Positions 3,476 through 31,362 of a stretch of DNA of 64,000 nucleotides are shown here, one piece after another. Each line of letters starts with the position of its first letter. Position 1 is the stretch's first letter. The DNA lies in contig CAZUVH010000001.1 in the NCBI GenBank assembly GCA_964623775.1, positions 220,784 through 284,783 of the forward strand, in the 5' to 3' direction. The notes under the pieces are model-generated. The model saw only the letters and a list, made by a program, of their open reading frames with translations, did no database searches and was not told the origin of the DNA. A program made the position numbers and the translations under genes. The DNA comes from an uncultured Candidatus Saccharibacteria bacterium (GTDB taxonomy: Bacteria; Patescibacteriota; Minisyncoccia; Phycocordibacterales; UBA2100).

Positions 3476-3883
3476 ATGAGAGCAAATGCAAAGTCAGGTG
3501 GCGTGATGCTTGTGATGATTGGCCCCGTGCTTTCTATGGTCGCCTTCGCCTTCGTCAATCCCCCGATCGGAGGCCTACTTATTTTAATTGGTTTGTTACT
3601 TTGGGCAGCTGGAGTTCTCACGTTGATCTATGTCAAGGCGCGACTCTATGGGATCCGAGGCCTACCCCTTTCATTGGTTTTATTTATCGGTCTCGTTATC
3701 GTCACAATAGCAGATTATATTTCTGGTCTACACGCGCCCAACGACGGCATAAGGGGGCTGGAGCTCATTCCCCTCTTTTTTATCACCTTCATCGCGTTTG
3801 CCTTTTTGAATATCGCGCTTATACGAAATAAGCCAGGTTCTCTTGATGGATTCCTGCAGGCACTTCGGGATTATAAAGATTGA
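3476..3883 (+). CDS. integral membrane protein (4 predicted TM helices)
   Basis: 135-aa hydrophobic ORF; TAAAGT -10-like box 3 nt before the ATG, no SD. Confidence 0.5.
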   Translation: MRANAKSGGVMLVMIGPVLSMVAFAFVNPPIGGLLILIGLLLWAAGVLTLIYVKARLYGIRGLPLSLVLFIGLVIVTIADYISGLHAPNDGIRGLELIPLFFITFIAFAFLNIALIRNKPGSLDGFLQALRDYKD

Positions 3884-3916
3884 CTTGGAAATCCGTGGAG
3901 GCGGTAGAATAACCAC

Positions 3917-4171
3917 ATGAATCAAGCTTGGAAATGGGCGGCCGGAATTCTTGTCGCCATTTTTGTGTTTGGCGGAATGTATTTGAGCGGCTGTGGCGGG
4001 AATATCAATCCGCTTCATTGGACGGTCTCGTGGTACGCGTTTGCGACAGGGCCATCTGAGTATCTTCGCGAATTACATAATCTGTGCTCGTTCAAGCCAG
4101 TTACTCGTGAAGATGTGATGGGCGAGAAAGATCCACCTGCGCCGCTGCCGTCGGTGAATCCGTGGGATTGA
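3917..4171 (+). CDS. small membrane/lipoprotein-like protein
   Basis: 84 aa; N-terminal hydrophobic segment followed by LSGC lipobox-like motif; GGAGG 16 nt upstream. Confidence 0.4.
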   Translation: MNQAWKWAAGILVAIFVFGGMYLSGCGGNINPLHWTVSWYAFATGPSEYLRELHNLCSFKPVTREDVMGEKDPPAPLPSVNPWD

Positions 4172-4232: not shown

Positions 4233-4314
4233 GGGCATGTGGCGGAATTGGTATACGCGTGCGTCTCAGAAGCGCATCCCGCAAGGGTTGGGAGTTCGAG
4301 TCTCCCCATGCCCA
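4233..4314 (+). tRNA. tRNA-Leu, anticodon CAG, class II with long variable arm
   Basis: Hand fold: acceptor GGGCATG/CATGCCC; D-stem GCG/CGC with loop GAATTGGTATA (G18G19 present); anticodon stem TGCGT/GCGCA, loop CTCAGAA; variable arm TCCCGCAAGGGTT; T-arm GGGAG-TTCGAGT-CTCCC; discriminator A; CCA not encoded. Confidence 0.85.
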
Positions 4315-4315
4315 C
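4297..4315 (+). repeat. 19-bp direct repeat copy 1 (CGAGTCTCCCCATGCCCAC), the 3' end of tRNA-Leu
   Basis: Identical 19-mer recurs at 4454..4472. Confidence 0.8.
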
Positions 4316-4565: not shown

Positions 4566-6152
4566 ATGATAAAAAAAATAACCGGGGTTTTTGCCCAAAT
4601 TTTCAACCAAAAAAGTATTAGGACTGAAGTCCTGGCGCTTTTGCTGTGCATTGTCTCAATATCAGTGATTGCCGTTATCTTTTTGGAAGTGAGCTCCATT
4701 TTGATATTGAGGGATAAGGCCCAGGAGACGACTTCTGTCGCCCTGCGCGGGGAGACAGAGAAACTTTTTAATGAACTCACCAAGGCGGCAGCCGAGAAAA
4801 ATGACCTGATTTTCCACGAGATAGCTACTGATGCCAGTAAGGCTGCAAAATACGCTGAAAACATCTTTGAGAACCCCCAAGCCTTTGTGCGGGGTTCCTA
4901 TTGGCGGTATGACGACCAGGTTTTCAGGGGCGACAAAGGGCAATATATGAATGGGGCGGACGATCTCTCTTCGGTTTTCATACCCAATCATGTTGTCATC
5001 ACCGATGATTTGAAAAAAAGAGTGGAATTGAGTGCGTATTTGGAGTTTATCTTTCCAAAAATTCTAGAAAAAAAACCAGATGCAGTAGCGATCTGGATGA
5101 TCGGCCACCAGGGAGAATCGAGATACTATCCTAATATAGGTCTTGGCAACATAGCGCCTCCAGACGAAAAAGTCACCGAAGAGGTTTTTTTCGTAATAGC
5201 TAATCCGGAAAATAACCCGGAGAAAGAAGTTGTTTGGACACCGGTCTATGATGATCCTGCAGGGCAGGGACTAATGATAACTGCCTCGGCGCCGATATAC
5301 ACAAAGCAAAAAGGTTTTATGGGAGTTTTGGGTATTGACGTTACCCTCACAAAAATACTTGAGAACGTTGAGGAATACAGCCCCATAGAGGACGCAGATT
5401 CGTTTATCATTGATGAGCGAGGATACGCCATTGCCCTATCAGACGAAGCGCACCAAGAACTCCTTGGGAGGAGTCCGGAAAAAAAAGAATTCGGCGTAGA
5501 TCTAAATGGAGTTACCAAGGAACTCGACTCAGTCATCAGTGAGATGAAAAAAGGCTCGACGGGCAATAAGACCATAACTTTGTGGGGCAGAGAACAGTAC
5601 ATTTCCTACGCTCCGATGAAGAGCACGAAATTTAGCCTTGGAATGTTCGTAGAAAAATCAGTGATGGAAAAAACAGCTACTGGTCTCGAAAAAGAAATGA
5701 ACAGTTCGGCCTGGGAAATGATTTTTTTCCGTCTCTTTCCCCTTAGTCTACTAATCCTTCTAGTCGCCTGGCTCGTAGTCTATTGGTACATGAACCACCG
5801 AATAACTCAGCCGCTGAGCAGTTTAACGAGGACAGCGGAAGAGTTGTCGGGTGGCAAAATGGAGGTCAGATCGGATATCGTCTCGGAAAATGAAATTGGA
5901 CAACTGGCGAAGGTGTTTAATCAGATGGCCGCGCAGCTCCAAGAGCACTATAGCGGCTTGCAGCAAAAGGTCGAAGAAAGAACAACTGAGGTTGAGAAGA
6001 CCAAAGGCAAAGTAGAGACAGTTAATCAAGAGTTGTTGAAAAAAGTGGAGGAGCTTGATCGAATAAATAAACTGATGATTGACCGGGAACTGAAGATGAT
6101 AGAAATGAAAAAAGAAGTAGAGGCTCTGAGGCAAGCTCAGGGTAAAAATTAA
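4566..6152 (+). CDS. Cache (dCache_1-like) / HAMP domain membrane sensor without recognisable output domain
   Basis: 528 aa; TM1 near the N-terminus, ~330-aa extracytoplasmic domain, TM2 (LFPLSLLILLVAWLVVYWY), canonical HAMP (RITQPLSSLTRTAEELSGG...IGQLAKVFNQMAAQL), then ~70-aa coiled coil; no kinase, MCP signalling or GGDEF domain. Confidence 0.6.
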   Translation: MIKKITGVFAQIFNQKSIRTEVLALLLCIVSISVIAVIFLEVSSILILRDKAQETTSVALRGETEKLFNELTKAAAEKNDLIFHEIATDASKAAKYAENIFENPQAFVRGSYWRYDDQVFRGDKGQYMNGADDLSSVFIPNHVVITDDLKKRVELSAYLEFIFPKILEKKPDAVAIWMIGHQGESRYYPNIGLGNIAPPDEKVTEEVFFVIANPENNPEKEVVWTPVYDDPAGQGLMITASAPIYTKQKGFMGVLGIDVTLTKILENVEEYSPIEDADSFIIDERGYAIALSDEAHQELLGRSPEKKEFGVDLNGVTKELDSVISEMKKGSTGNKTITLWGREQYISYAPMKSTKFSLGMFVEKSVMEKTATGLEKEMNSSAWEMIFFRLFPLSLLILLVAWLVVYWYMNHRITQPLSSLTRTAEELSGGKMEVRSDIVSENEIGQLAKVFNQMAAQLQEHYSGLQQKVEERTTEVEKTKGKVETVNQELLKKVEELDRINKLMIDRELKMIEMKKEVEALRQAQGKN

Positions 6153-6325
6153 AATAGTCATGGCGGCATAGGGAATACCGTACTTGCATACGAAGTATGC
6201 GACAAATTTTGCCACGGGTGCATGGCCAGCTCTTTTGCGGGGCAGACAGGCGCAAATTAATGTGCGATTGACTTTTTTGAAATAAGTGACATAGTAGCGC
6301 AGGACAAATAATGTAGGAGGGTCCG

Positions 6326-6877
6326 GTGGCCCAATCTCAGAGAGTACTCAGACGTGCAGGCAGGGTCCTGATGGTTGCCCTCGTCGTGCTGCTGGTCCTG
6401 GTGGAGGACATTCTCCGCTTTGCCGGCTTTGTCGTCCGTAAAATTCTCCCTGCCGACTTCGAGGAATACCTGCGAAGTAAGTCGAATGCTTTTGCATTCG
6501 GCGTCGTCGGAGTCGCGGCGGTCGTCTACGTCATCATCCACGCGGTTGAATACGACGCATTTTGGGCCGGATTTTATTGGACCGGTATCTCTCTCATGAT
6601 CTTCTCGAAGATCTATACCGTATCGGTACTTGGCTATCTCTGTCGCGTCTACTCCGATCGGCTGCTAGCCGTCTCGTGGATCAAGCGGACGTGGAATCTG
6701 TACCTTTCGGCGAAACAGTGGCTGAAGAGTTTTCAGTGGTACAAAATCGCTCATGCATTCGTCGTGCGCGTCAAAGAGGGGATGAAAGCGATGATCAGGA
6801 GATTCCGCGAGCGATTCCAGGGGAACTCTATGTTTGCGGTCGCCTGGCGGATCATCCGTATGCGCCGCCGTTCTTGA
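6326..6877 (+). CDS. hypothetical membrane protein
   Basis: GTG start with GGAGG SD 5 nt upstream; 3-4 predicted TM helices; followed by terminator. Confidence 0.55.
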   Translation: MAQSQRVLRRAGRVLMVALVVLLVLVEDILRFAGFVVRKILPADFEEYLRSKSNAFAFGVVGVAAVVYVIIHAVEYDAFWAGFYWTGISLMIFSKIYTVSVLGYLCRVYSDRLLAVSWIKRTWNLYLSAKQWLKSFQWYKIAHAFVVRVKEGMKAMIRRFRERFQGNSMFAVAWRIIRMRRRS

Positions 6878-6884: not shown

Positions 6885-6912
6885 GCCCTCCGTTTCGGAG
6901 GGCATTATATTT
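6885..6912 (+). terminator. rho-independent terminator
   Basis: GCCCTCCG-ttt-CGGAGGGC stem followed by ATTATATTT. Confidence 0.7.
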
Positions 6913-6939
6913 GACATGAATGTAATTTACATGTACAAT
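6911..6939 (+). promoter_or_regulatory. sigma70-type promoter
   Basis: TTGACA (6911-6916), 17-nt spacer, TACAAT (6934-6939); drives the 6988 gene. Confidence 0.65.
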
Positions 6940-6987
6940 ATTTAAAGTCATTCCGGCCATGAGGCCCAGAAAGCAGAGGAGAGTGCA

Positions 6988-7434
6988 ATGGAGACCAAGC
7001 GTTATACCTTTTCTGTCGGCAACGAAGTCAAGTTCACGGCGGCCGTAAAGGCCATCTTCAGCAACGACGCGGCGCATGAGGGCGACCACATCATCGTCGA
7101 GATTCGCGCCGTCCCACGTACCGAGAACGATCCCTTCTCGCCCAACTACATGGGCGCACAAGAGGGACAGGATGCCGTCGGCCACCATCAGCAGGTGCGC
7201 TTCGAAGGGCACGACAACTGGGTCAGCGGCGCATTGCTCGAGCCCACGCACGAGTGGAATTCGTTCGATCAGGCGATGTTCGCTCAAGGCCTCGATCAAT
7301 TCTTCGACGGACTTTTCGATGCTGCGAGGAAGGGCGACATCTCGTATCAAGAGATCGAGCAACGGTTCTTCCCCCCGGACATGCGATCTCGGGCCCGCGC
7401 AGCTGCCGAAGAACAGTTGGCCCTTGACCTCTGA
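6988..7434 (+). CDS. hypothetical protein (148 aa, acidic)
   Basis: GAGGAGAG SD upstream; consensus promoter upstream and terminator downstream; opposite-strand ORF 6751..7362 is Arg/Leu-rich antisense. Confidence 0.6.
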   Translation: METKRYTFSVGNEVKFTAAVKAIFSNDAAHEGDHIIVEIRAVPRTENDPFSPNYMGAQEGQDAVGHHQQVRFEGHDNWVSGALLEPTHEWNSFDQAMFAQGLDQFFDGLFDAARKGDISYQEIEQRFFPPDMRSRARAAAEEQLALDL

Positions 7435-7457: not shown

Positions 7458-7489
7458 ACCGCCTCCTACTCGGGGGCGGTTCTTTTTTG
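7458..7489 (+). terminator. rho-independent terminator
   Basis: ACCGCCTCC-tact-CGGGGGCGGT hairpin followed by TCTTTTTTG. Confidence 0.7.
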
Positions 7490-7505: not shown

Positions 7506-7534
7506 TTGACACCATTTTGGCGCGCGCCATACTT
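7506..7534 (+). promoter_or_regulatory. sigma70-type promoter placed for a leaderless transcript
   Basis: TTGACA (7506-7511), 17-nt spacer, ATACTT (7529-7534), 7 nt, ATG 7542; the TTG start in the ORF track is actually this -35 box. Confidence 0.55.
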
Positions 7535-7541
7535 TGGGGAT

Positions 7542-7982
7542 ATGACACATCATTATTTGCATGCAGATAAATTAGAAAAGTATAGTTTCTTGTGGTCGGA
7601 GGCTCGATTAATCATTGCAGCCGCGGCTCTCCTCATGGGAGGAGTACCGCCGCTCTTTTTGATCCTTCCCGCGTCGGCTTTCAGCGCGATGCTCCTCAAA
7701 GTGTGCTGGCTGATCTCGGGTGCGGCAGCCGTTTACCTCGCATACCGCTGGCACATGGCCAAGTACACGCTCTTGGGCAGGAAGGATTCGACGGACATGA
7801 CGGCATTCCTCGTCATGATCCTGTCTGGTATCAACCTCGGATGGACGGGCGTCTCTGGCAACAATTTCGGTATGTCGATTTGGTCCGGCCGATTCATTTT
7901 CATCGTGGTCGGCATTCTCTACCTCTGGGCAGCGTACTACCTCTGGAATAGATGGAACAAGGCTGGTAAGCGCCTCTTCTAA
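7542..7982 (+). CDS. membrane protein (4 predicted TM helices)
   Basis: ATG 7 nt downstream of the -10 box; hydrophobic 146-aa product; strong terminator downstream. Confidence 0.55.
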   Translation: MTHHYLHADKLEKYSFLWSEARLIIAAAALLMGGVPPLFLILPASAFSAMLLKVCWLISGAAAVYLAYRWHMAKYTLLGRKDSTDMTAFLVMILSGINLGWTGVSGNNFGMSIWSGRFIFIVVGILYLWAAYYLWNRWNKAGKRLF

Positions 7983-9235: not shown

Positions 9236-10510
9236 TTAGCGCAATTGGTGTTGTAGAGTGGTCTCCACGAGCGCTCGGGGCCATCCATAGGCGAGCCGAT
9301 TGAGGGTCACCACCTTCTCGGTGATAGGCGAGGGAGGTGCCTCCTGGGGCGCGAGGCTTCTGCCCGAGAAAACCTCGCTCGTCTTGCCGTCGATCATGAG
9401 TTTTATATAGAAATTGAAACGTGGAAGGCCGAGGAAATCGGCTTCGTGGATCCCCGCCATCTCGCGCGAGAGGATTTTGGCATCCTCGACGCCCACTTCG
9501 AATGCGGCGAGCGTGCCCACGTTGCCGAGGACTGCGTCTTTGATATTTTCCGGCAGCTGCGAGAAATACTGGTTGGTGAGATGCATGCCGAGTCCATATT
9601 TACGTGATTCGCTGAGGAGGGAGGCAAACGTGTCTGTCGCAAAATTCTGAAACTCGTCGACGTAGAGGTAGAAGGGCGCGCGATCATCCGCCGATCTCTT
9701 GGCGCGCTTGAGAGTCGCTGCTTGTAGTCGAGACATAAGGATGAGGCCAAGCATGTGCGCGTTGATCTCGCCGATTTTCCCCTTCGAGAGGTTGCAAAGC
9801 ACGATTTTGCGATTGTCCATCATTTCGCCAAAATCGAACGAGCTCACGTGCTGGCTCATGATGTTGCGCATGAGCGCGTTGTTCATAAAGGGGCCGAATT
9901 TGGACATGAAGTAATTCAGCATTTCGCTCTTGTGGAAGTCCGACGTCTTCTGCATCTGCTTGGTCCAAAAGTCGATGACGAGAGGATCGGTGAGGTGCGC
10001 GCGTTTTTGCCGCTCGAATTCACGATCGACGAAGAGCCGGGGGATCTCGAGAATACTGCCGCCCTCAGGACCAGTCATCACGGTGAGCGCCGCGTTGCGC
10101 AACCAGTGTTCGAATTGCGGACCGATGACACCGGTTTTCTTGGGATCAAAGAGTTTGTAGAAAATCTGAATGCATTCGTTGACCAGGAAATCTTTCTCGA
10201 ATTCGTCGTGCGCCTCGAGGAGATTGAGCCCCATCGGGAATTCCGTATCGCTCGGATTGAAAAGCACCACATCCTGCAGCCGCTCACGCGGGATATGCGC
10301 GAGGAGCCAATCGATCGACTCTCCGTGTGGGTCGATATAGCAGGCGCCATCACCGTTTTCAATATCTTGGAGGCACATGTTTTGGAAGACTGTCGACTTA
10401 CCGACACCCGTCTTACCGATCATGTACATGTGGCGCAGACGATCGGCGGGCTTGAAGCCGATGAGATTTCTTTTGCCGCGATGGACGCTTTCGCCGATGT
10501 GAATGTTCAT
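9236..10510 (-). CDS. VirD4/TraG-like coupling-protein-type P-loop ATPase (TrwB_AAD_bind/DUF87-like), soluble, no N-terminal TM
   Basis: Walker A MIGKTGVGKST; YIDPHGE matches the coupling-protein DPKGE motif; Walker B FYLYVDEFQNF; start overlaps the upstream small gene (ATGA). Confidence 0.65.
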   Translation of the reverse strand: MNIHIGESVHRGKRNLIGFKPADRLRHMYMIGKTGVGKSTVFQNMCLQDIENGDGACYIDPHGESIDWLLAHIPRERLQDVVLFNPSDTEFPMGLNLLEAHDEFEKDFLVNECIQIFYKLFDPKKTGVIGPQFEHWLRNAALTVMTGPEGGSILEIPRLFVDREFERQKRAHLTDPLVIDFWTKQMQKTSDFHKSEMLNYFMSKFGPFMNNALMRNIMSQHVSSFDFGEMMDNRKIVLCNLSKGKIGEINAHMLGLILMSRLQAATLKRAKRSADDRAPFYLYVDEFQNFATDTFASLLSESRKYGLGMHLTNQYFSQLPENIKDAVLGNVGTLAAFEVGVEDAKILSREMAGIHEADFLGLPRFNFYIKLMIDGKTSEVFSGRSLAPQEAPPSPITEKVVTLNRLAYGWPRALVETTLQHQLR

Positions 10511-10746
10511 ATGAGTGAAATGTCGAGTTTTTTCTGGATAAAGTATTCGGACTTGAGCGTCTTGTTGAGTTCTTTCCGTACCGCCTCCGTCTTCGCGTCG
10601 GATTCGATCATGGCGACGAGCGATTGGTGTTCATACTCGATCTTCTTTTCGAGTGCGTGGAGAAGGGCAGGGCTGATATCGCGCGCCACTGAGGCGAGCA
10701 TGTCGCGGCGTTGCTCCACCATCTTTTGTGCGTGAGCGTGTGTCAT
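10507..10746 (-). CDS. small helical protein (79 aa), translationally coupled on both sides
   Basis: Start overlaps the Clp-like stop (ATGA) and its stop overlaps the VirD4-like start (ATGA). Confidence 0.5.
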   Translation of the reverse strand: MTHAHAQKMVEQRRDMLASVARDISPALLHALEKKIEYEHQSLVAMIESDAKTEAVRKELNKTLKSEYFIQKKLDISLI

Positions 10747-12401
10747 ACAGTGCCAAGGAGTGATTGGACTAATAAGGTCTCGCAGGTTTCCTCGACAAAT
10801 CGCTTCACGGGACGTGCTCCGAAGCGGGGATCTGAGAGGTGTGCGATCTTCTCTCGCATCGCGGCGGGTTCGATGTCGAATTGCACGCGATGTTTTGAGA
10901 GACGCTTCTCGATCTTCTTGATCTCAAGCTCGGCGATTGAGACGAGACTCTTGGTAGAGAGGGGATTGAAAATGAGCACAGCATCGAAACGGTTGATGAA
11001 TTCGAGTCGAAAAGTCTTGGCGAGTATGGGCAGGATCTTTTCTCGCACCACGGACTCATCGCCAAGATCGTCGCCATGCTCGAATGCCTGAAGTATTTCC
11101 GCGACACCCGTATTGGATGTCGCCATGACGATCGTGTTGCGTGCGTCGACTGTCTCATTCTGTCCGGAGGTGAGTCGGCCGTCGTCGAGTACCTGGAGGA
11201 AGATGTCGAAGACTTTTGGATGCGCTTTTTCTATTTCGTCGAGCAGGATGAGAGAGTACGGCTCTTTGCGCAACGCATTGGTGAGCGCGCCGCCCTCGTC
11301 GTAGCCCACGTATCCCGGCGGTGAGCCCACGAGCCTCTGCACCGTGTGATCTTGCTGGAATTCCGACATGTCGAATCGAGCAAAGCTCTCCGACCGACCA
11401 AACATTATCTCCGCGACGCACTTAGCGGTCTCTGTCTTGCCGACACCTGAGGGGCCGAGCATGAGGAACGACCCGAGCGGACGATTTGGATTACGTAGTC
11501 CGAGCTTTGCCCGCTGCAGAGTCGCGGCGATTTTCCTGATCGCACTGGATTGATCGACGATCCGCTCGTTGAGCCGCTCCTCGAGATCCTTCACTCCCGC
11601 GAGTTCATTCTGTGAGAGTTGCGATTCCGGTACGCCCGTTTTGGGTGCGACGACATGCGAGATCGCCTCGCGTGTGAGTACTCGCTGACTTTTCGAGGCG
11701 GCGTACGAAATACTTTCGTCGAGCAGGTGGATCGCCGACTGCGGCATTTGCCCAAGAGTGGGGAAGCGCTCGGTGTGCGCCACGATCTCTTGGAGCGATT
11801 CATCCGGTACGATCACGCGATGGCGCGCATTGAGGCGCGGCAATTTCTCCGAAAGTATTCGTGTGTGCTCTCCGGCGCTCTGTCCCTTGAGATTGATCAC
11901 CTCAAATTCCTGCACGAGCGACGGGTGCTCTTGTTCGAGCCAGGCAAATTCATGCGGTTCGAGTGTAAGGACGACATGCACGTGCTGATCTTTGAGCAGC
12001 TTTTTGTACAAGCGGTACATGCGATGCGTGAGCGTCGCATTGCGGGTGATTTCGCGGCCAAAATCGTCGACGAATATCACGCTATGCGGCACCTGCGAAA
12101 ATGCTTCCGCATACCGCTCTTCGAGTGCGCCGTCATTGTCGAGCGCGTAGAGATGCGAAGTATCAAATTGGAGGAGTGCATATGAGTCGTATTTTGCGTT
12201 ACCGCTCATGCGCTTCATCGCGCCATAGACAAGCATTGATTTGCCGATACCGTTTGGCCCCACGATGAGCGCATTATTTTTGATCCTCCGGCCGAAGACG
12301 CGGTAGAGGCGATCGATCTCACTTTCGCGCCCCACGATTTTCGGAAGCCGCGGAGCTTCTTGGCGGAGATTATAGTAGGCGATTTTTTTCGGATCAGTCA
12401 T
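10743..12401 (-). CDS. Clp/Hsp100-family double-AAA+ ATPase lacking N- and M-domains (ClpA/ClpB D2-like C-terminal half)
   Basis: D1 P-loop LIVGPNGIGKS and Walker B VIFVDDFG; D2 LMLGPSGVGKTETAK, GSPPGYVGYDEGG, SLILLDEIEKAHPKVFDIFLQVLDDGRLT are hallmark ClpA/B D2 signatures; only 552 aa. Confidence 0.7.
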   Translation of the reverse strand: MTDPKKIAYYNLRQEAPRLPKIVGRESEIDRLYRVFGRRIKNNALIVGPNGIGKSMLVYGAMKRMSGNAKYDSYALLQFDTSHLYALDNDGALEERYAEAFSQVPHSVIFVDDFGREITRNATLTHRMYRLYKKLLKDQHVHVVLTLEPHEFAWLEQEHPSLVQEFEVINLKGQSAGEHTRILSEKLPRLNARHRVIVPDESLQEIVAHTERFPTLGQMPQSAIHLLDESISYAASKSQRVLTREAISHVVAPKTGVPESQLSQNELAGVKDLEERLNERIVDQSSAIRKIAATLQRAKLGLRNPNRPLGSFLMLGPSGVGKTETAKCVAEIMFGRSESFARFDMSEFQQDHTVQRLVGSPPGYVGYDEGGALTNALRKEPYSLILLDEIEKAHPKVFDIFLQVLDDGRLTSGQNETVDARNTIVMATSNTGVAEILQAFEHGDDLGDESVVREKILPILAKTFRLEFINRFDAVLIFNPLSTKSLVSIAELEIKKIEKRLSKHRVQFDIEPAAMREKIAHLSDPRFGARPVKRFVEETCETLLVQSLLGTV

Positions 12402-14785: not shown

Positions 14786-14837
14786 TATAATGATCACCCT
14801 ATGAAAGACGGTCGCATCATCACATGGTAATGAAAAA

Positions 14838-14858
14838 CCCCCAGAAATGGGGGTTTTT
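14838..14858 (+). terminator. rho-independent terminator
   Basis: CCCCCA-gaaa-TGGGGG followed by TTTTT. Confidence 0.8.
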
Positions 14859-14876: not shown

Positions 14877-16193
14877 ATGAGTGGGTATGAAGAACTATTT
14901 CGTGGCAAGAAAATCACAGTCATGGGACTGGGGATGCTTGGGCGTGGGGTGGGGGATGTGGAATTTTTGGCGAGGTGTGGTGCGGAGGTACTGGTGACGG
15001 ATAAGAAAAGGGAGGGCGAGCTTGCCGAGTCGATCGAGCGTTTGCAGGAATTCCCCGATGTCACATTTCATCTCGGCGGCCACAAGATCGAGGATTTTCA
15101 GCATTGCGACATGGTGCTCAAGGCCGCTGGTGTACCGCTCGACTCACCGGAAATCGCGGCGGCACGTGCGGCCAATATTCCCGTGTATATGTCGACCGCA
15201 CTTTTTGCAAAATACGCTGCAGAAGCTGGGGCGATTGTCGTAGGGATTACCGGTACGCGCGGCAAATCGACGGTGACACACATGATTCATCATGGACTCG
15301 AGCACGTGGGGAAGCGCTCACACCTGGGCGGCAATGTGCGCGGCAAGTCCACGCTCGCGATGTTGCCGGAAATAGAGAAGGGTGATTATTGCGTCCTCGA
15401 GCTCGACTCGTGGCAGCTGCAGGGATTTGGCGATCTCAAGATTTCTCCGCACGTCGCCGTATTCACCAATCTGATGACCGATCACCTCAATTACTATCCG
15501 GACATGGAGACGTATTTTGCCGACAAGGCTGCTATTTTCAGATATCAAAAAGCGGGGGATGCGCTCGTAGTCGGAGGCGCGATAGAGGAGCGCATTGTGG
15601 CGGATCATCCGCCGGTTGTGCCCACGGTGCCGCCTGCGATACCGAAAGAATGGAAATTGCTCGTGCTCGGTGAGCACAATAGAGAGAACGCCGCGCTCGC
15701 TGCGGGCGCGCTTTTTGCGCTCGGGCTTTCGCAGGGCGAAGTGAGCGCTGCGCTGGGATCATTTGACGGGCTTGAGGGCAGGCTCCAGCTCGTGCGTGAG
15801 ATCGACGGCGTGATGATCTGCAACGACAACAACGCGACGACGCCGGAAGCGACGATCGCCGCGATCGCGACGCTCGCAGATGATGGAAAAAAGGTCATAT
15901 TGATCGTGGGAGGCGCAGACAAGAGTCTTGCGCTCGAAGACTTGGCGAGGACGATCAACGAACATGTCGCCGCCACGGTCACATTGAGTGGCACGGGCAC
16001 ACAAAAATTGGTACCGCTCCTGACCGCTCCCTGCGTCCCCGAAGAATCTCTGAGGAGTGCATTTCTGCACGCGATGCAGCTCGCAAAAAGCGGTGACATC
16101 ATTCTCTTCAGCCCCGCGTTCGCATCATTCGGGATGTTCCGCAACGAGTACGACCGCAACGATCAATTCTTGAAGATCGTCAAAGAATTTTAA
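14877..16193 (+). CDS. murD: UDP-N-acetylmuramoylalanine--D-glutamate ligase
   Basis: N-terminal ITVMGLGMLGRGV NAD-like fold, GITGTRGKST P-loop, LVLGEHNRENAALA; the ORF-track start at 14847 reads through the terminator, so ATG 14877 was chosen. Confidence 0.85.
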   Translation: MSGYEELFRGKKITVMGLGMLGRGVGDVEFLARCGAEVLVTDKKREGELAESIERLQEFPDVTFHLGGHKIEDFQHCDMVLKAAGVPLDSPEIAAARAANIPVYMSTALFAKYAAEAGAIVVGITGTRGKSTVTHMIHHGLEHVGKRSHLGGNVRGKSTLAMLPEIEKGDYCVLELDSWQLQGFGDLKISPHVAVFTNLMTDHLNYYPDMETYFADKAAIFRYQKAGDALVVGGAIEERIVADHPPVVPTVPPAIPKEWKLLVLGEHNRENAALAAGALFALGLSQGEVSAALGSFDGLEGRLQLVREIDGVMICNDNNATTPEATIAAIATLADDGKKVILIVGGADKSLALEDLARTINEHVAATVTLSGTGTQKLVPLLTAPCVPEESLRSAFLHAMQLAKSGDIILFSPAFASFGMFRNEYDRNDQFLKIVKEF

Positions 16194-16850: not shown

Positions 16851-17120
16851 TTATGAACTCTGCGCAGGGACACGCTCGCGCAGGAGTGCGATGCCTTTTT
16901 GCATAGCTTCAGTGGTCTCGGGGTCTTTTTCGAGATCGACTATTGTCTGTTGAAGGACGCTGTCGATGCCGTTGCTGTTGTCGAAAAGGTACGAGGGGAA
17001 CTCTTGGAATTTTTCAAAATATTGCTGAAACGTTTTCTTTCGAACATCCGGATTTTTGCTCGTCGCGCCTTCTTTCAGGTCGGCAAAATTGAATTTTGGC
17101 TGTTTTTCCCTTTTTACCAT
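16851..17120 (-). CDS. hypothetical protein (approx. 89 aa)
   Basis: Start placed at ATG 17120 (MVKREKQPKF...) with a TACAAT box 8 nt upstream; the longer ORF-track start (17210) would overlap the divergent gene. Confidence 0.4.
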   Translation of the reverse strand: MVKREKQPKFNFADLKEGATSKNPDVRKKTFQQYFEKFQEFPSYLFDNSNGIDSVLQQTIVDLEKDPETTEAMQKGIALLRERVPAQSS

Positions 17121-17176
17121 TACGCGTATTGTAGCGCGTATTATTTTGCGCGATAGATAGCGGAAGAATGTCGCGT

Positions 17177-17184
17177 TGTATACT
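17177..17184 (+). promoter_or_regulatory. TG-extended -10 box (TGTATACT) for a leaderless transcript
   Basis: 7 nt upstream of ATG 17192; same geometry as murD. Confidence 0.45.
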
Positions 17185-17191
17185 GTTTTAT

Positions 17192-18073
17192 ATGCGTGAA
17201 GCATTTCCAAATAAGAACAAAGACGCGGCGGAAAAAAACTCCGAAGTTTTTGTCAGTGAGTGGGATAGGGAAATTCTCGAAAAAGGCGCGCATGGCGTTA
17301 TCTCGAAAATACTGGAAGATTTTGACGGGCCCCCTGACGTGATCGTATTACCAGAGACCTCAGCGCGACCACTTTTTTATGTGCTACGGCCAGTCTTTCA
17401 AAAGTTACAGGAGACCGGTGGTACTCAGATGCCGAGGTTTTATTTTTTTAATACAAAAAAGCCGAGCATAGCACTTTCCGTAGAGGAGCGTGCCAAAGGT
17501 GGTTTTGAAGACGAATACGTAACAATCGATTCAACCGAAGAATTACGGCGGCTCATTGAGGAAATGGGATATCCTCCGAATGTGACAGAACACCAATTGA
17601 AAGAAGCGGAACCCGAGAAAATGAAGGAGGCCAGGGATTTGATGAAAGAGCGCGCCCACGAAATCCTTGATCGTGCACCTGGTGCACGAATCGCAATCGT
17701 TGATGAATATGAATCGAATGGTTATACAGTTCGGGAAGTGCGCCGTGCTTTTTCGAATCCAGAGCTTCCAGCGTATTCAATTTTTGCAGATTATCCCACT
17801 CAGACTCATGCGGGCACGACCATTAATGCTAATCGCGAAGGTAACCCGCGACGCCACAACAAAGCAAAATTAACCTATTCCGATGAACCTGCCGTGGGTG
17901 TACAAAAAAATAAACATGAATTTTTTGAAAAATACACGTTAGCAATCAGGAATTCTCACGATCCGCAGGATTTAGAGCAACAAAAAGCAACTTTGCGAAA
18001 AGAATTGATAGTAGTTGGAGAAAAGGTTGCGAACACTATCTTAAAAGAAATATCCGACAAAAAGGCGGCATGA
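17192..18073 (+). CDS. phosphoribosyltransferase-like domain protein
   Basis: RIAIVDEYESNGYT matches the type I PRTase PRPP-binding motif (hhhhDD/E....G.T); stop overlaps the murC start (ATGA); start at MREAF rather than the ORF-track 17168. Confidence 0.4.
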   Translation: MREAFPNKNKDAAEKNSEVFVSEWDREILEKGAHGVISKILEDFDGPPDVIVLPETSARPLFYVLRPVFQKLQETGGTQMPRFYFFNTKKPSIALSVEERAKGGFEDEYVTIDSTEELRRLIEEMGYPPNVTEHQLKEAEPEKMKEARDLMKERAHEILDRAPGARIAIVDEYESNGYTVREVRRAFSNPELPAYSIFADYPTQTHAGTTINANREGNPRRHNKAKLTYSDEPAVGVQKNKHEFFEKYTLAIRNSHDPQDLEQQKATLRKELIVVGEKVANTILKEISDKKAA

Positions 18074-19350: not shown

Positions 19351-19371
19351 TGGCTGTGCTATTGTTTCCTC

Positions 19372-21219
19372 ATGGAAAAACAGAAGCATCCGCTCCATCT
19401 CAAAAATCCCGAGCTCCAGACTTCTGCCGAAGTGAACCGCGCAGTCAAGCGGCACGAACGTCACGATGATGAAAAGATCCCCAACAACCCCTCCGAACGC
19501 ATCGAGGCGTACATGGGTCGTCTCGAGAATGTCTTTCTCAATCCTGACGAGCGGACTCGCACGCGCAATCTGGAAATGTTCCGCGATAAAATATACGACG
19601 CGCTTATCATCAAAAAAGATAACTTTCCCGATTCGTATTTCGAACTTCAGAAACGCATCGCCCGTGAACGCGGCCAGAATATTGAAGTAATTCCGGCCGA
19701 TGTCCGCGAGCAGATGATGGACACCGCCATCGAGGATCAACGACATTCTCTCGACGCGTGGATGGAATATCTCACCTCGCCGAACGCCGTGTATCCAGCA
19801 TGGTTCAAATATTACGCATGGAATCAGATCATAAAGCTCTCGCAATTCGACAAAGAACGCGGCGAATTCAAGAAACGCACCGACTCCACCGTCGCTCCGT
19901 ATCCGGAAATCTATCGTGAACCTTTGGCCCAGATCGCCGATCTCTATGAGCGCGTAAAGGATAACAACAAAGATTCGGAAGCCCGTCGAGAATTCGACAG
20001 AAAATTTCCGGCTCTGTACGCCGAACTTATCTCAAAATCCCTCGCCGCTTCGATGGAGAACCGCGAGGAGGTTCGCGGACAATGGATAAAATACGAACAG
20101 GGGAACGATGAGGCCGCGCAAAAGCTGTTCGAGTCGCTCGAAGGAAAAGGAACCGGATGGTGTACCGCCGGCCGTTCGACCGCCGAAACGCAGATCGAGT
20201 CCGGCGACTTCTATGCGTACTATACGTACGGCAAAGATGGCACTCCAAGCCAGCCGCGCCTTGCCATCCGCATGGATGGAAAAGACAGGATTGGCGAGGT
20301 CAGAGGTATTCTTCCGCATCAGGGAGTGGAACCGGTCGTACAGGAAGTGCTCGACGACAAGCTCAAAGAATTCGGAGATGAGGCGGAGGTATATCGCAAA
20401 AAAAGCGAGGATATGCGACGTCTCACCTCCCTTGAGCGTGCATACGAAAAGGGCGAACAATTCACGAGGGATGATCTGGTTTTTTTGTATGAAATAAACT
20501 CAACTATTGATGGTTTTGGGTACAAAAAGGATCCTCGTATCGAAGAACTTCGCGCTGACCGGAATCTGGAGGAGGATATACTTACCATCTTTGAATGCGC
20601 AAAAGAGGAAATCGCTCACGTGCCGAGCGAAATAACCGAAAATACCAAAGCATATGTCGGACAGCTTGAGCCGGGCATTTTCCAGAAGCTTCCGGCAACT
20701 TTGGAGCATGTATATACGTCATTCCCCGAAAAGGAAATCCGACGTGAAAGTGTCGAAATCGGTGGCAAAACTACCGAGCAATTGATACACGAAATGGAAA
20801 AGGCCGATATTCACATTTCCGATTATGCGCGGAGCATGCTTCGAAACTCGAAAGAATTCATCCCAAAAAAAAATTCGGAGGACATGACGCTTATCCACCT
20901 CACGGTCGGTGATCTTGGCTTCAGAACGAGCGCGACCGCCGACCAGATATTCGAGCGGGCGCAACAGCTCGGTTTGGAACTTTGCCCGTCGGATACCGGT
21001 CCCAATTGGCGGCTAAAGTACCGCAATCAACCTTTGGGAGAATGGATCTGCATGGGCATGAAGCAAATAACCAGCTCTGATGGACTCCCAAGCATCTTCA
21101 TACTAGATCGCGGTGACGTTGGCTTGTGGCTGGCCACCGCCTCGGCGGAATTTGACCACAGGTGGAGTTCGGACAATGTGTTCATTTTCCGTCTCCGCAA
21201 GGCGTCTCCTGAATCTTAG
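19372..21219 (+). CDS. large hypothetical soluble protein (615 aa)
   Basis: Long uninterrupted ORF with balanced composition; no motif recognised; followed by a terminator-like hairpin. Confidence 0.55.
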   Translation: MEKQKHPLHLKNPELQTSAEVNRAVKRHERHDDEKIPNNPSERIEAYMGRLENVFLNPDERTRTRNLEMFRDKIYDALIIKKDNFPDSYFELQKRIARERGQNIEVIPADVREQMMDTAIEDQRHSLDAWMEYLTSPNAVYPAWFKYYAWNQIIKLSQFDKERGEFKKRTDSTVAPYPEIYREPLAQIADLYERVKDNNKDSEARREFDRKFPALYAELISKSLAASMENREEVRGQWIKYEQGNDEAAQKLFESLEGKGTGWCTAGRSTAETQIESGDFYAYYTYGKDGTPSQPRLAIRMDGKDRIGEVRGILPHQGVEPVVQEVLDDKLKEFGDEAEVYRKKSEDMRRLTSLERAYEKGEQFTRDDLVFLYEINSTIDGFGYKKDPRIEELRADRNLEEDILTIFECAKEEIAHVPSEITENTKAYVGQLEPGIFQKLPATLEHVYTSFPEKEIRRESVEIGGKTTEQLIHEMEKADIHISDYARSMLRNSKEFIPKKNSEDMTLIHLTVGDLGFRTSATADQIFERAQQLGLELCPSDTGPNWRLKYRNQPLGEWICMGMKQITSSDGLPSIFILDRGDVGLWLATASAEFDHRWSSDNVFIFRLRKASPES

Positions 21220-21299: not shown

Positions 21300-21768
21300 A
21301 CGAAAAAATTTCCGGTTCCGGATTGGGATTTTTTTCCTTAAAGACGAGGATTTTGTATCCGAAAAAATTTCCGAGAACGGATACCGGTATCGTCATGAGT
21401 ACTGCGATGTTTGCCCAAAGTTTTGGCGAGATTCCCTCCGGTGCGCCAAGAACATTTACCAAGAACGAAATAATGGCGACGTTGAGGAGGGCTACACTGC
21501 TGGAGACGGAGAAGAACAAGACGTATTCGCGACGCGCCGTCTCTTTATCTTTGACCTTAAACACCAAAAATTTATTCCAGAAGAATGAGTGCGTGACGAC
21601 GATCGCAAAGGTGATCAGTGAGAAGAACGTAATCTCGATACCCTCGGTGATGCCGGAGACCCACAGGAAGATGTTGAAAATACTGAGGCTGAGGACGGTG
21701 TTGAGTACGCCAACAAGCGCATACCGGACGAATTTCCAGCCCAAGATCTTCTGCAAGAGGAGATACAT
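21298..21768 (-). CDS. GtrA family protein (polysaccharide synthesis, flippase-associated)
   Basis: KFVRYALVGVLNTVLSLSIFNIFL...WNKFLVFK matches GtrA family; 4 TM helices; start at MYLLLQK (21768) rather than the ORF-track 21837. Confidence 0.65.
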   Translation of the reverse strand: MYLLLQKILGWKFVRYALVGVLNTVLSLSIFNIFLWVSGITEGIEITFFSLITFAIVVTHSFFWNKFLVFKVKDKETARREYVLFFSVSSSVALLNVAIISFLVNVLGAPEGISPKLWANIAVLMTIPVSVLGNFFGYKILVFKEKNPNPEPEIFS

Positions 21769-21855
21769 CCCAAAAGAATACGGGCCCAGGTGCCTAGTGT
21801 AAAGGCGGGCTCTGTTGCATAGACGCACGGTACGCATCCGTGATAGTGTCCACGC

Positions 21856-22554
21856 ATGGAAGAATCCGAAGAGTCAAAGGGCAAACTTTCAATAGTCGCG
21901 ACACCCATCGGCAATATGGGGGATATTACCTTTCGCGGTCTGTGGAATCTCAAGGAGTGCACGGCTATTTATGCAGAAGATACGCGGGAGATTTTGAAAT
22001 TGCTCAATCACTATGGTCTGCGCAAATCCGTATTTCGCCTCGACGCGGCAATGGAGGATAAGAAGGCGAAAGAGGTGATCGAAAAATTGGAGGCGGGCGA
22101 ACATATCTGCTACGTGACCGACGCCGGGACGCCGGGGATCTCAGATCCAGGGGCGAGGCTCGTCGCGCGCGTACGAAGGCTCGCACCGGACGTCGTGATC
22201 GACGCGATCCCGGGTGCTTCGGCGCTCACGGCTGCGATTTCGATCTCGGGCGCCGATCTCGATTCGTTTACCTTTCTCGGATTCTTGCCGCACAAAAAAG
22301 GCCGTCAGACCACTCTGAAACGAATCGCAAAAAGCGAGATTCCTGTGATCCTGTACGAATCTCCGCACCGGATTTTGAAACTCTTGAAAGAGCTTGAGGG
22401 TGTCGGCATTGAGAAAGTCTCGATCGGACGCGAGCTCACCAAGATGCACGAGGAAATGATAAGTGGCTCACCTAAAGAGCTCGCAAAAGATTTGGAGAAG
22501 CGAAAAGCAGTGAGAGGTGAGTTTGTCGTGATTGTCGAACCCAAAGGAGCTTAG
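21856..22554 (+). CDS. rsmI: 16S rRNA (cytidine1402-2'-O)-methyltransferase
   Basis: LSIVATPIGNMGDIT signature and tetrapyrrole-methylase fold length (232 aa). Confidence 0.85.
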   Translation: MEESEESKGKLSIVATPIGNMGDITFRGLWNLKECTAIYAEDTREILKLLNHYGLRKSVFRLDAAMEDKKAKEVIEKLEAGEHICYVTDAGTPGISDPGARLVARVRRLAPDVVIDAIPGASALTAAISISGADLDSFTFLGFLPHKKGRQTTLKRIAKSEIPVILYESPHRILKLLKELEGVGIEKVSIGRELTKMHEEMISGSPKELAKDLEKRKAVRGEFVVIVEPKGA

Positions 22555-23396
22555 AACGGCCGCGGTCTATCTATATCGTACTTTTTTGCCGCATCCTGAA
22601 ATGTTTCGGGGTATTGTTTCTGGCCTTCCTCGGAAAGACCGGACTTTTCGATAGCTTCATCAAAGGTCTCTACTTTCGGAGAGTGTCTCTCTTCGTTGAT
22701 AGTCCTCTTTTTCAACATACTCATATTTGCGTCCCTCCCTGGGAAAAACCGCGCTTTGCGTAGGTATGCCTGAGTATAGGGGAATAGTTTCCCACCGATA
22801 TCGAGGCCGGTAAAAAGATGACTCTGCCAACCGCCGGCAAATATCTCACCAGATATACTGTCGAAATTCTTAAGCTCTTTTCCTATTGGTGAAGAAAGAA
22901 GTTGGATCTGGGTATCCTTGTCGCTCAGCCGACTTTCCATGAGTGCTTGCAGCTCATTTTTCAGGTGCCATCCGAATCGTTTCCGAATGTAGTCTTTTTT
23001 GTAAATACTCTGTTCGCCAAAAGAGGTTATAGGGAATGTGACGCCCTCCTCTTTGACTTTTCTCTTGATCTCAGAATAGTAGGGACTCGATATAAAATCC
23101 GCTTCGTCGAAAAAGATGTGCAAATCGATGTCGGTCTTTTTCGCGGTTTCTTCGGTCAGCACTTTACCTTTTGTTAGAGAACCAAAAAGGGAAAAGGCGA
23201 GGTTAACTCCAGGAAACTTCTTTTGCAGTTCATCGCAAGATTCTTTGACAGCTTTGTACCGCTCGCGTGAGATCGGATCTTCGGAGATTTTGAAACGTTC
23301 AGGGGAAGGCGTGTAGGGTACTTTTTTCTGACGCTCCATGCTCATATCATCACAGTATACCAATATCGACGTATTCTTTGCGACGTGAAATCTCAC
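22551..23396 (-). CDS. nucleotidyltransferase (Pol-beta superfamily) domain protein
   Basis: FGSLTKGKVLTEETAKKTDIDLHIFFDEAD fits the GS..G....DxD NTase core; long C-terminal region unassigned; true start may be the internal MSMERQ. Confidence 0.4.
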   Translation of the reverse strand: MRFHVAKNTSILVYCDDMSMERQKKVPYTPSPERFKISEDPISRERYKAVKESCDELQKKFPGVNLAFSLFGSLTKGKVLTEETAKKTDIDLHIFFDEADFISSPYYSEIKRKVKEEGVTFPITSFGEQSIYKKDYIRKRFGWHLKNELQALMESRLSDKDTQIQLLSSPIGKELKNFDSISGEIFAGGWQSHLFTGLDIGGKLFPYTQAYLRKARFFPGRDANMSMLKKRTINEERHSPKVETFDEAIEKSGLSEEGQKQYPETFQDAAKKYDIDRPRPF

Positions 23397-23414
23397 CGTG
23401 GTATACTCCTTGCC

Positions 23415-23654
23415 ATGACAGCAGACGCACTCATTATTCTTGCGGGGACATTGGTCGCAGTAATCCCATTTCTCGGGTTTCCATCATCGTGGGATCGTGT
23501 GTTTTTCTTTGTGCTCGGAGTGTTTGTCGTCGCGCTCGGTATCGCGGTCAGGAGGAAGCAGGTAGCACACCGACCGGAGGTAAAGCCGACACTTTTTGCA
23601 GAAAGCCAGCCAAATCTTTCTGCTCAGAGTGTCCATCATGAAGCAGATAAGTAA
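23415..23654 (+). CDS. small membrane protein (2 predicted TM helices)
   Basis: Start at MTADALII; overlaps the start of the next gene. Confidence 0.35.
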   Translation: MTADALIILAGTLVAVIPFLGFPSSWDRVFFFVLGVFVVALGIAVRRKQVAHRPEVKPTLFAESQPNLSAQSVHHEADK

Positions 23655-24897: not shown

Positions 24898-24915
24898 ACG
24901 TGGTATTATTTCGCC

Positions 24916-25140
24916 ATGGAAAATTTTGAACAAGCAAAGAAAGTTGCGAGCCATGAATTGCCAGAACATTCGGGCATTAATGGATCTGAATTACAGCTGC
25001 CGACCCCGACACCGGAAATAGAAAAGAAACCGGAAATTTCACCGGCGGAGCTCAATGACCTCATTCAAAATCCAGAGAAACAGTGGGACAAAGACGAGGA
25101 GCGGGACAATCCTGCCAAAAAGGGACCAACAATTCACTAA
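24916..25140 (+). CDS. small acidic protein (74 aa)
   Basis: Followed by a perfect palindromic terminator. Confidence 0.4.
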   Translation: MENFEQAKKVASHELPEHSGINGSELQLPTPTPEIEKKPEISPAELNDLIQNPEKQWDKDEERDNPAKKGPTIH

Positions 25141-25183: not shown

Positions 25184-25753
25184 TTATGCGTATTCGGGGA
25201 GCGCCCGTATCGCAGGAAGGAGCTGTGAGATTCGCAGGTCGACGCCGATCGTTTGCCAGGCTTTTCTGACGACAAAAGGATTGCTGTCGGCGGTGGCCAA
25301 ATGGAGGAGTCTGAGAACAGCTTGAGTCTTGCCGCCGCCAAACCCGTCGCGTGTCGTCTCGAGAATTACCTTGTCGAGCACATTGTCGAGTACGTCCCGA
25401 CTCCTTGAGAATATAGGAGTCGCCAATAGTGTACGGGCGAAGTGATCTCTCTTGGCGGGTTCATCCGTGTAATTGAGCCCATCAATCAGCAATTCCCACA
25501 GGTATGCGCGAGTAATGGGAAGCGGATATGTGAGCTCATAAGGAATTTTTTGCATGAGCTCAATCGCCTTGTCGGCCACCTTGGTTATCACCGGTGGATA
25601 AGCGGGAATTCCATAAAAGCGTACGATTTTTTCGGCAACCTTCTTCAGCTCCTCATCATCCGCACTATCTTTAGCAAGGACGGCCTTTCCCACAAATATG
25701 AGCTCGTGGGCTTCGATTTGATTTTTTACCGGCACTTCGGTGACTGTAGTCAT
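25184..25753 (-). CDS. hypothetical protein (189 aa, helical)
   Basis: AAGGAGAA SD 6 nt upstream of the ATG at 25753. Confidence 0.55.
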   Translation of the reverse strand: MTTVTEVPVKNQIEAHELIFVGKAVLAKDSADDEELKKVAEKIVRFYGIPAYPPVITKVADKAIELMQKIPYELTYPLPITRAYLWELLIDGLNYTDEPAKRDHFARTLLATPIFSRSRDVLDNVLDKVILETTRDGFGGGKTQAVLRLLHLATADSNPFVVRKAWQTIGVDLRISQLLPAIRALPEYA

Positions 25754-25889
25754 GACATTCTCCTTGAGGGCCTAGACCCTCTTCTGGTGTCAGTGAGGTC
25801 GAAACCTCGGTTTGTGGACTCTGAAGCGGCGCGAACGACGCTTTGTCCGGGCGCATAAAACCATAAATTCTCCCGAGGAGCAATATTTT

Positions 25890-25898
25890 TGATATACT
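25890..25898 (+). promoter_or_regulatory. TG-extended -10 box (TGATATACT) for a leaderless transcript
   Basis: 6 nt upstream of ATG 25905; no SD. Confidence 0.45.
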
Positions 25899-25904
25899 TT
25901 CTAT

Positions 25905-29849: not shown

Positions 29850-29894
29850 CACGGCTCAGTATACCCGTTCCTTTTCTTGGTGTAATCTGGGGTT

Positions 29895-30821: not shown

Positions 30822-30858
30822 ATTAAATAGTTAATTTAGACTCAAACCGGAGGCTCTC

Positions 30859-31305
30859 ATGGGCTGGCTTACACAGTCGTTCATCGCGGTCGCGTTTTTG
30901 ACGCCCGCGTGGCTTGCGATCCCGTTTTTCCAAAGGAATTTCGGGGTTTCGGCAGGCGCGTTTCTCGTCTGGTATTTCGTCGGCACATCGCTCTCGGTCG
31001 CACTCTTCGGAGTGCCCCGGCAAGCGCTCGTGCCTTCGGTACCGCTCGTGGTCGCGATCACGGTCGTCGGCTGCGTATTCGGTGGTATTGCCAACGGTTC
31101 GCTTTTCAGCGCCGTTGCCGGTGCGCCGAATCCGGGTCTTGCTGTCGCTATCTCAAATGGTGCAGCACTGACGACGTTCGTTGCCGCAGTCGTATTCTCA
31201 CGATTATGGCCGACGCACTTTGCTGCCGCGGAGTTCAGTATCCAATCACTGATCGGCGCGGTACTTATCGTCGCCGGGGCGGCACTCATCGCAATCAAAT
31301 CCTGA
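30859..31305 (+). CDS. small 4-TM membrane protein, EamA/DMT-like (ArnE/ArnF-like lipid-sugar flippase subunit candidate)
   Basis: 148 aa, four hydrophobic helices, located inside the glycan cluster; the function is inference. Confidence 0.4.
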   Translation: MGWLTQSFIAVAFLTPAWLAIPFFQRNFGVSAGAFLVWYFVGTSLSVALFGVPRQALVPSVPLVVAITVVGCVFGGIANGSLFSAVAGAPNPGLAVAISNGAALTTFVAAVVFSRLWPTHFAAAEFSIQSLIGAVLIVAGAALIAIKS

Positions 31306-31362
31306 TCAGCCTGATTTTCCAGACGCGCGAGCAGTAGCTCGCGCGTCTCTCTTCTTTTCTAT

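Follow-up and report, generated by a model that had tools for sequence, protein, structure and literature searches.

Across the 64,000-nt stretch of DNA analyzed here (the window), about 26 of 63 genes (∼40%, a share drawn from 64 kb rich in glycosylation genes that may not hold genome-wide and is ∼15–20% in related loci) carry a TANNNT hexamer a few nucleotides upstream of the start codon. The share is higher next to divergent intergenic regions, where about 14 of 22 genes are boxed (∼64%). We consider it likely, with a probability of about 0.8 judged from sequence features, that these boxes are sigma-70-type −10 elements driving leaderless mRNAs, in which transcription would begin at the ATG itself. 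A first-pass annotation had proposed this reading from eight sites, all of which were found in the sequence with minor corrections, although the total is about 26 and not 8. The sharp position of the box, its TGn and −35 features, a bias towards ATG, the absence of Shine-Dalgarno (SD) sequences, the hairpin and divergent contexts and the recurrence of the arrangement in relatives all point to leaderless transcription.

The gene map was made by codon-usage scoring of open reading frames (ORFs), which gave 63 genes with a complete 5′ end at a window GC content of ∼51%. Their products include MurA, MurD and a MurC-like ligase, two TrwB/VirD4-like ATPases and a ClpB-like AAA protein, and from ∼29.8 kb on there is a long glycosylation cluster with epimerases, GT1, GT2 and GT4 glycosyltransferases, PMT_2, UbiA, a carbamoyltransferase and methyltransferases. 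The best relatives of the window MurD (14877–16193) come from uncultured Patescibacteria metagenome-assembled genomes at 57–64% identity, among them Kaiserbacteria, Paceibacterota and Parcubacteria as well as bins labelled Saccharibacteria. A minus-strand cluster at 9236–12401, comprising a TrwB/VirD4-like ATPase, a 79–105-aa protein and the ClpB-like AAA+ ATPase, is syntenic in two other Patescibacteria contigs (L025 8494–11686 and L028 12888–16150), and the second, longer TrwB-like gene (25905–28139) is followed by a lamin-tail-domain protein. The 652-aa protein of 37451–39409 fuses a UDP-glucose/GDP-mannose dehydrogenase N domain, lacking profile positions 1–70 (the Rossmann start), to a GT1 glycosyltransferase. 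Rfam and ARAGORN searches of the window returned tRNA-Leu (4233–4315) as the sole RNA gene and no riboswitch or leader RNA, so the short upstream regions are not explained by such RNAs.

The distance of TANNNT was scored for every candidate start among the first 30 codons of each gene, at spacers of 0–30 nt. The hexamer lies at spacer 6 in 13/63 genes, at spacer 7 in 10/63 and at spacer 8 in 4/63, with 23/63 genes covered by spacers 6–7 together, while each other spacer has about 2 genes and this background level holds throughout spacers 0–5 and 9–30. When only the first in-frame ATG was considered and the upstream sequence ignored, 18/63 genes had a box at spacer 6–8, compared with 3.6 ± 1.8 genes, and never more than 11, in 5000 shuffles of the upstream regions. 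Internal in-frame ATGs were preceded by a box in 9/382 cases with no peak, and in a position table built without reference to any motif, A occupies −11 in 52% of genes. With 34 genes, the non-CPR murD loci offered too small a sample for a negative control, and 50 kb of Escherichia coli K-12 of similar GC content was taken instead; the identical pipeline gave a broad SD peak there and no TANNNT peak (0/40, 1/40 and 0/40 annotated starts).

These data bear directly on whether composition could create the pattern, with AT-rich intergenic DNA and upstream stop codons yielding TANNNT near starts by chance. Two hexamers do touch an upstream stop codon (33626 and 40458), as such an origin would predict, but they are the only two, and on that count we rejected a stop-codon artefact. 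An origin in chance is in any case scarcely credible and was likewise rejected, since the peak is restricted to spacers 6–8, the observed count was never reached by the shuffles, the E. coli control of like GC has no peak and the peak reappears with independent gene calls in relatives. The positional profile also removed one of the sites first proposed as leaderless: TAAAGT-3-ATG is present at 3476, but its spacer of 3 lies off the peak and the example was rejected; here transcription may instead start near 3479 and serve an AGGTGG-led ATG at 3506.

At the site from which the analysis started, upstream of 7542, the terminator hairpin of the preceding gene confines the whole promoter to ∼60 nt (Table 1). 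The arrangement reads TTGACA-17-ATACTT-7-ATG, or alternatively TTGACA-18-TACTTT with a spacer of 6. The gene (7542–7982) encodes a 146-aa conserved membrane protein with homologues in Patescibacteria only, including Ryanbacteria and Kaiserbacteria. The N-termini of 18 homologues fall 0–4 residues from Met 7542, and none of the 18 has a counterpart to the 12-residue extension that would result from the TTG at 7506; the public protein collection likewise holds the 146-aa product from ATG 7542 and lacks the 158-aa form. In an orthologue on contig L025 (71% protein identity) the promoter can be aligned, with a −35 island (GTATCCCCG..CTTTGACACC) and a −10 island (GCCATACTTT) conserved, the spacer between them diverged and the ATG retained 6 nt past TACTTT. 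The earlier proposal that the TTG at 7506 is a −35 hexamer and no start codon is therefore upheld by the homologues, by the public call and by retention of the hexamer in L025. The public call of that orthologue begins ATGAATATG (L025 2085–2093), and its second ATG aligns with window position 7542; by this alignment the call probably includes two codons too many.

The boxed ATG could in principle be no start at all, with the boxes being true promoters whose mRNAs begin with an untranslated AUG and an ordinary leader, and translation starting further downstream. Start codons were assigned computationally, most of these genes have an in-frame ATG or GTG further down, and 3476, with its spacer of 3 and its AGGTGG before ATG 3506, fits such an arrangement. 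This is nonetheless quite improbable for the boxed genes as a whole. Homologues support the boxed starts at 7542, murD 14877 and 17120: murD relatives align from residue 1, and tblastn matches to 17120 in L001, L003 and L015 start at Met 17120. Pfam domains begin at residues 5–15 of the predicted proteins at 29895, 32618, 43342, 21856, 60611, 21768 and 31375. Moreover, an ATG of no importance would have no peak positioned relative to it, and these genes show no SD further down.

In the opposite direction, boxes lying inside longer correct ORFs had been named as an outcome that would count against leaderless initiation. For 7542, 14877 and 17120 the homologues speak against this, 14/26 boxed sites have no in-frame start upstream and for the rest it is the position of the Pfam domain that argues for the boxed ATG. 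Longer alternative starts are available at 21768, 42013 and 23345, and we regard the starts at 21768, 23345, 42013 and 47831 as moderately uncertain. Because tblastn against the fetched loci found no orthologues for nine disputed starts (17168, 3476, 29852, 40458, 42013, 47819, 23396, 60560 and 21837), these were assigned by geometry and Pfam alone. Taking the longest ORF at face value misplaces the start of about 12 window genes into the promoter, for example at 7506, 14847, 17168, 31363 and 47819.

Some further starts drew our attention. With both first ATGs in use, 36239(+) (GT4) and the divergent 36310(−) (polysaccharide deacetylase) would share 72 nt (36239–36310); as the GT4 domain is not reached until about residue 38, the plus-strand start may be wrong, and a good alternative start was not found. 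Two epimerases (51175–51260 and 62777–62840) have Rossmann domains beginning at residue 27 from GTG 51175 and at residue 16 from ATG 62834, and their longest-ORF starts are probably too long; neither a −10 box nor an SD was found at any obvious alternative start.

Since boxes were selected by the T, A and T of the hexamer only, the TGn extension and the −35 element count as independent tests of promoter character. A canonical TGn extension is found in 8/26 boxes (25905, 19372, 21856, 23415, 24916, 32618, 42013 and 47774), as against 5.2% of all 1141 TANNNT hexamers in the window (p = 3e-5), and G stands at −14 in 18/26. The first-pass annotation had described the boxes as often TG-extended, which is correct for the canonical TGaTATACT of 25905, whereas at 14877 and 17192 the TG abuts the hexamer (e.g. 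TG-TATAAT). The best −35 match at 16–19 bp reaches at least 4/6 in 14/26 boxes (54%, against a baseline of 16.5%) and is poor in about half of them. Full promoters are seen at 7542 (TTGACA-18-TACTTT), 3917 (TTGACT-19-TAGAAT), 47774 (TTGATA-16-TATACT), 60611 (TTGATA-17-TAGAAT) and 21768 (TTTACA-17-TATTCT). A consensus promoter scanner returned 10 sites in the window against 16.7 expected, and is uninformative by itself because it demands a good −35. The letters conserved in the box are T−12, A−11 and T−7, and the box precedes 25/101 ATG candidates compared with 2/79 GTG or TTG candidates.

The genomic context of most boxes is that of transcription-unit starts. Stable hairpins lie directly upstream of the boxes at 7542, 14877, 31375 and 37451, and fourteen boxes face divergent genes, so that these two contexts place 18/26 at unambiguous unit starts. 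Only 45 nt separate the ATG of 29849(−) from that of 29895(+), and 71 nt separate the ATG of 17120(−) from that of 17192(+); each interval holds the boxes of both genes and leaves no space for leaders. The remaining 8/26 boxes lie in same-strand gaps of 6–36 nt without a terminator, and no box was found in the genes of the map that overlap their neighbour.

Two of the divergent regions also contain inverted repeats. A perfect 17-nt repeat, CTTTCTAACGGGGTATA, occurs at 50184–50200 (−) and 50256–50272 (+), where 0.04 would be expected by chance. The two copies extend into the −10 positions of a divergent gene pair, 50174(−) (GT1) and 50276(+) (FkbM-type methyltransferase), one copy per gene; a duplicated promoter module and a paired operator are both conceivable. 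The hexamer of the plus-strand copy, TATACC, lies only 1 nt from the ATG, making the start of 50276 doubtful. At 17121–17140, in the region shared with 17192, an inverted repeat TACGCG...CGCGTA flanks the TACAAT of 17120(−) and is a possible operator. The first-pass annotation gave this TACAAT a spacer of 8, which the sequence corrects to 7.

Table 1. Boxed sites, associated hairpins and SD-led genes for contrast (window coordinates; numbers within motif strings are spacers in nt)
Positions	Strand	Feature	Remark
3880–3919	+	TTGACT-19-TAGAAT-6-ATG 3917, 84-aa ORF	No in-frame start upstream
6268–6328	+	TTGACT-16-CATAGT (6268–6295), AGGAGG (6315–6320), GTG 6326	Contrast: leadered, SD-led
6911–6990	+	TTGACA-17-TACAAT (6911–6939), AGAGGA (6975–6980), ATG 6988	Contrast: ∼40-nt leader
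7458–7480	+	Terminator hairpin and T-run of upstream gene (6988–7434)	Strong, intrinsic
7506–7544	+	−35 TTGACA (7506–7511), −10 CATACTTT (7528–7535), ATG 7542	Flagged site
14833–14858	+	Terminator hairpin AAAAACCCCC/GGGGGTTTTT	ORF-track ATG 14847 in loop
14864–14879	+	TATAAT-7-ATG 14877, murD	
17118–17133	−	TACAAT-7-ATG 17120, 89-aa protein	
17179–17194	+	TATACT-7-ATG 17192	Divergent from 17120
19360–19374	+	TGcTATTGT-6-ATG 19372	21-nt gap to upstream gene
21766–21780	−	TTTACA-17-TATTCT-6-ATG 21768, GtrA-like	ATG 21837 possible instead, hence moderate confidence
21844–21858	+	TGaTAGTGT-6-ATG 21856, RsmI-type methylase	
23343–23359	−	TGgTATACT-8 (or TACTGT-6)-ATG 23345	
23402–23417	+	TGgTATACT-7-ATG 23415	
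24904–24918	+	TGgTATTAT-6-ATG 24916	
25751–25764	−	AGGAGA-5-ATG 25753	Contrast
25890–25907	+	TGaTATACT-6-ATG 25905, TrwB/VirD4-like ATPase	
29847–29863	−	TATACT-8-ATG 29849	Or spacer 5 to GTG 29852
29883–29897	+	TAATCT-6-ATG 29895, epimerase	Domain from residue 7
30849–30861	+	GGAGG-5-ATG 30859	Contrast
31321–31348	+	Terminator hairpin	T-rich tail reaching next −10 box
31362–31377	+	TATGAT-7-ATG 31375, GT4 glycosyltransferase	ORF-track ATG 31363 within −10 box
32606–32620	+	TGgTAGGCT-6-ATG 32618, epimerase/dehydratase	
33614–33628	+	TAGGAT-6-ATG 33626	Ambiguous because hexamer begins with upstream stop codon and contains SD-like AGGA core
36308–36323	−	TACTAT-7-ATG 36310, polysaccharide deacetylase	
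37405–37453	+	Hairpin (37405–37437) into TACAAT (37437–37442)-8-ATG 37451	
40444–40460	+	TACAAT-8-ATG 40458, PMT_2 glycosyltransferase	One-base overlap with upstream stop codon; 6-nt gap
42000–42015	+	TGgTACGGT-7-ATG 42013, UbiA family	Longer ORF starts available, hence moderate confidence
43330–43344	+	TACGCT-6-ATG 43342, epimerase	Domain from residue 5
47772–47786	−	TTGATA-16-TGtTATACT-6-ATG 47774	
47818–47833	+	TATGAT-7-ATG 47831	ORF-track ATGs 47819 and 47822 inside box
50172–50187	−	TATAGT-7-ATG 50174, GT1	
60575–60613	+	TTGATA-17-TAGAAT-7-ATG 60611, GT2	Domain from residue 8

The boxed genes had been said to lack an SD, and the single exception is 33626, where an AGGA overlaps the box. 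About ten other genes carry GGAG at a rigid spacer of 5–6, the spacer being 6 in nine (206, 902, 6326, 6988, 16777, 25753, 30859, 52167 and 60497 are GGAG-led), so that SD-led and box-led genes coexist as proposed. Running the suggested comparison of TANNNT and SD frequencies over the window thus gave a box peak at spacers 6–8 and a GGAG peak in other genes. Of the classical SDs first listed, those at 206, 902, 6326 and 25753 were confirmed; 8692 has a weak one (GGGAG, spacer 10). The GGAG-led genes have longer upstream gaps, and 6326 and 6988 have a consensus promoter 30–50 nt upstream. Where a gene overlaps its upstream neighbour in an ATGA-type junction, neither box nor SD is present, and translation is presumably coupled. 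A leader need not come with a strong SD: the gene for a dCache and HAMP sensor protein (4566–6152) has TGTATAAT upstream, a leader of ∼27 nt and no SD better than a weak AAGGA.

The same arrangement recurs in other Patescibacteria. The murD orthologues have a box at spacer 6 before ATG or GTG starts in seven loci (TATAGT in L001, TAAGAT in L004, TATAGT in L005, TATATT in L007, TAGGAT in L010, and TACAAT in L015 and L016), and orthologues of 17120 have TACAAT-6 (L001), TACAAT-7 (L003) and TAGAAT-6-GTG (L015). Across seven related contigs with independent gene calls, TANNNT lies at spacer 6 in 24/175 genes compared with a background of ∼3.5; these boxes are mainly TATAAT, TACAAT and TATACT, the boxed starts are ATG in 31/31 cases and the median upstream gap is 76 nt for boxed genes versus 26–27 for the others. 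Naive ORFs in sixteen murD loci also gave this peak, with 14/98 at spacer 6 and 8/98 at spacer 7. In the S10 ribosomal-protein operon, TAATCT-6-ATG is conserved before rpsS in a 9-nt gap (L029 14012–14030 and L030 15330–15348), and this could be either an internal promoter or the one case pointing to a translational role of the motif.

A translational role is the remaining alternative to be weighed, in which TANNNT would be no promoter but a non-SD signal for initiating translation on mRNAs that have a leader or are polycistronic, much like the A/T-rich ‘group B’ motif of Bacteroidota. The eight boxes in terminator-free same-strand gaps and the conserved rpsS box inside its operon are what such a signal would produce. 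The enrichment of TGn and −35 elements, however, concerns sigma-factor features that have no ribosomal role, and the conserved letters are precisely T−12, A−11 and T−7. Most boxes (18/26) are at unambiguous unit starts and the motif never occurs in neighbour-overlapping genes, while the boxed genes of relatives have the larger upstream gaps; in addition, the rigidly spaced SD of other genes indicates that the anti-SD is in use. Together these observations make a purely translational signal very improbable.

Under the leaderless reading, a sigma-70 holoenzyme would bind the −10 box (TANNNT, often TGn-extended, with a −35 that is usually weak to good) and start transcription at, or no more than 1–2 nt from, the A of the ATG. 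Transcription normally starts 6–7 nt downstream of the −10 hexamer (PMC6028130), so with spacers of 6–7 nt the A of the ATG would be +1, and the spacer-8 sites 29849, 37451 and 40458 may have leaders of 1–2 nt instead of none. The resulting mRNAs would have neither a 5′ leader nor an SD, and the ribosome with initiator tRNA would bind the 5′-terminal AUG directly, as in Deinococcus-Thermus and Actinobacteria. The eight boxes in gaps of 6–36 nt would then be internal promoters whose −35 lies inside the upstream coding region, giving each such gene its own translatable leaderless mRNA.

This reading has practical consequences, as gene-start annotation in CPR metagenome bins hinges on the initiation model, and TGnTANNNT followed by 6–7 nt and ATG would be a simple promoter rule for gene expression in those few CPR systems that can be cultured. 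A predominance of leaderless initiation in these ultra-small, host-dependent bacteria, if true, would have implications for mRNA recruitment by their reduced ribosomes and for the idea of leaderless initiation as the ancestral mode. The mode might be linked to the reduced ribosomes and fewer biogenesis factors of Patescibacteria; it has been noted that they retain YchF, which is tied to leaderless translation (PMC12641178). A full-text literature search of incomplete coverage returned no paper linking leaderless initiation with CPR or Patescibacteria. The architecture itself is already known from Actinobacteria and Deinococcus-Thermus, and what is new is only the lineage and perhaps the extent. 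We tentatively suggest, at a little short of even odds, that Patescibacteria of the Paceibacteria/Kaiserbacteria type are a third large bacterial lineage, after Actinobacteria and Deinococcus-Thermus, whose first genes rely mainly on leaderless initiation, approaching one −10 box per gene even in gaps of 6–36 nt.

Compared with known systems, the window shares with archaeal ‘group D’ genomes transcription from the start codon (as we read it) and the lack of an SD, but promoters there consist of a TATA box and BRE at about −26, in place of a sigma-70 −10 box spanning −12 to −7. Like Bacteroidota ‘group B’, it has many genes without an SD; the group B motif, however, precedes all genes, operon-internal ones included, and so is no promoter, whereas here the motif is absent from overlapping or coupled genes, stands at unit starts and has −10, TGn and −35 features. 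Leaderless GTG starts are common in mycobacteria, and in this respect the window differs, as its boxed starts are nearly all ATG.

Closer parallels are found in Actinobacteria, where the ‘group C’ genomes (M. tuberculosis, M. smegmatis, Corynebacterium and Streptomyces) have leaderless mRNAs for 25–50% of transcription units, with a Pribnow box 6–8 nt from the first genes of operons and an SD at 6–8 nt otherwise (PMC6028130). GeneMarkS-2 predicts leaderless transcription for M. tuberculosis as a member of this group (PMC6028130). The window resembles these genomes in having a −10 box before some genes and an SD before others, and differs in its GC content of 51%, as code-11 group C genomes are almost all high-GC (bioRxiv 10.1101/2022.07.25.500264). 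In Deinococcus-Thermus, a ‘−10 region adjacent to ORFs’ is described for D. radiodurans, D. deserti and T. thermophilus in PMC12340547 and in de Groot 2014 as cited in PMC6028130, and ∼30% of ORFs are boxed, often with a weak −35 (PMC12340547). Upstream regions of D. radiodurans contain both TANNNT and GGAG motifs, and TANNNT was shown there by experiment to mark leaderless transcription (PMC12340547). The window, a Patescibacteria/CPR sequence known from sequence alone, repeats this pairing, with TANNNT at a fixed few nucleotides before ATG and GGAG as the second motif, and over its 64 kb the boxed share of genes, and still more that of divergent first genes, is at least as high as that of Deinococcus-Thermus.
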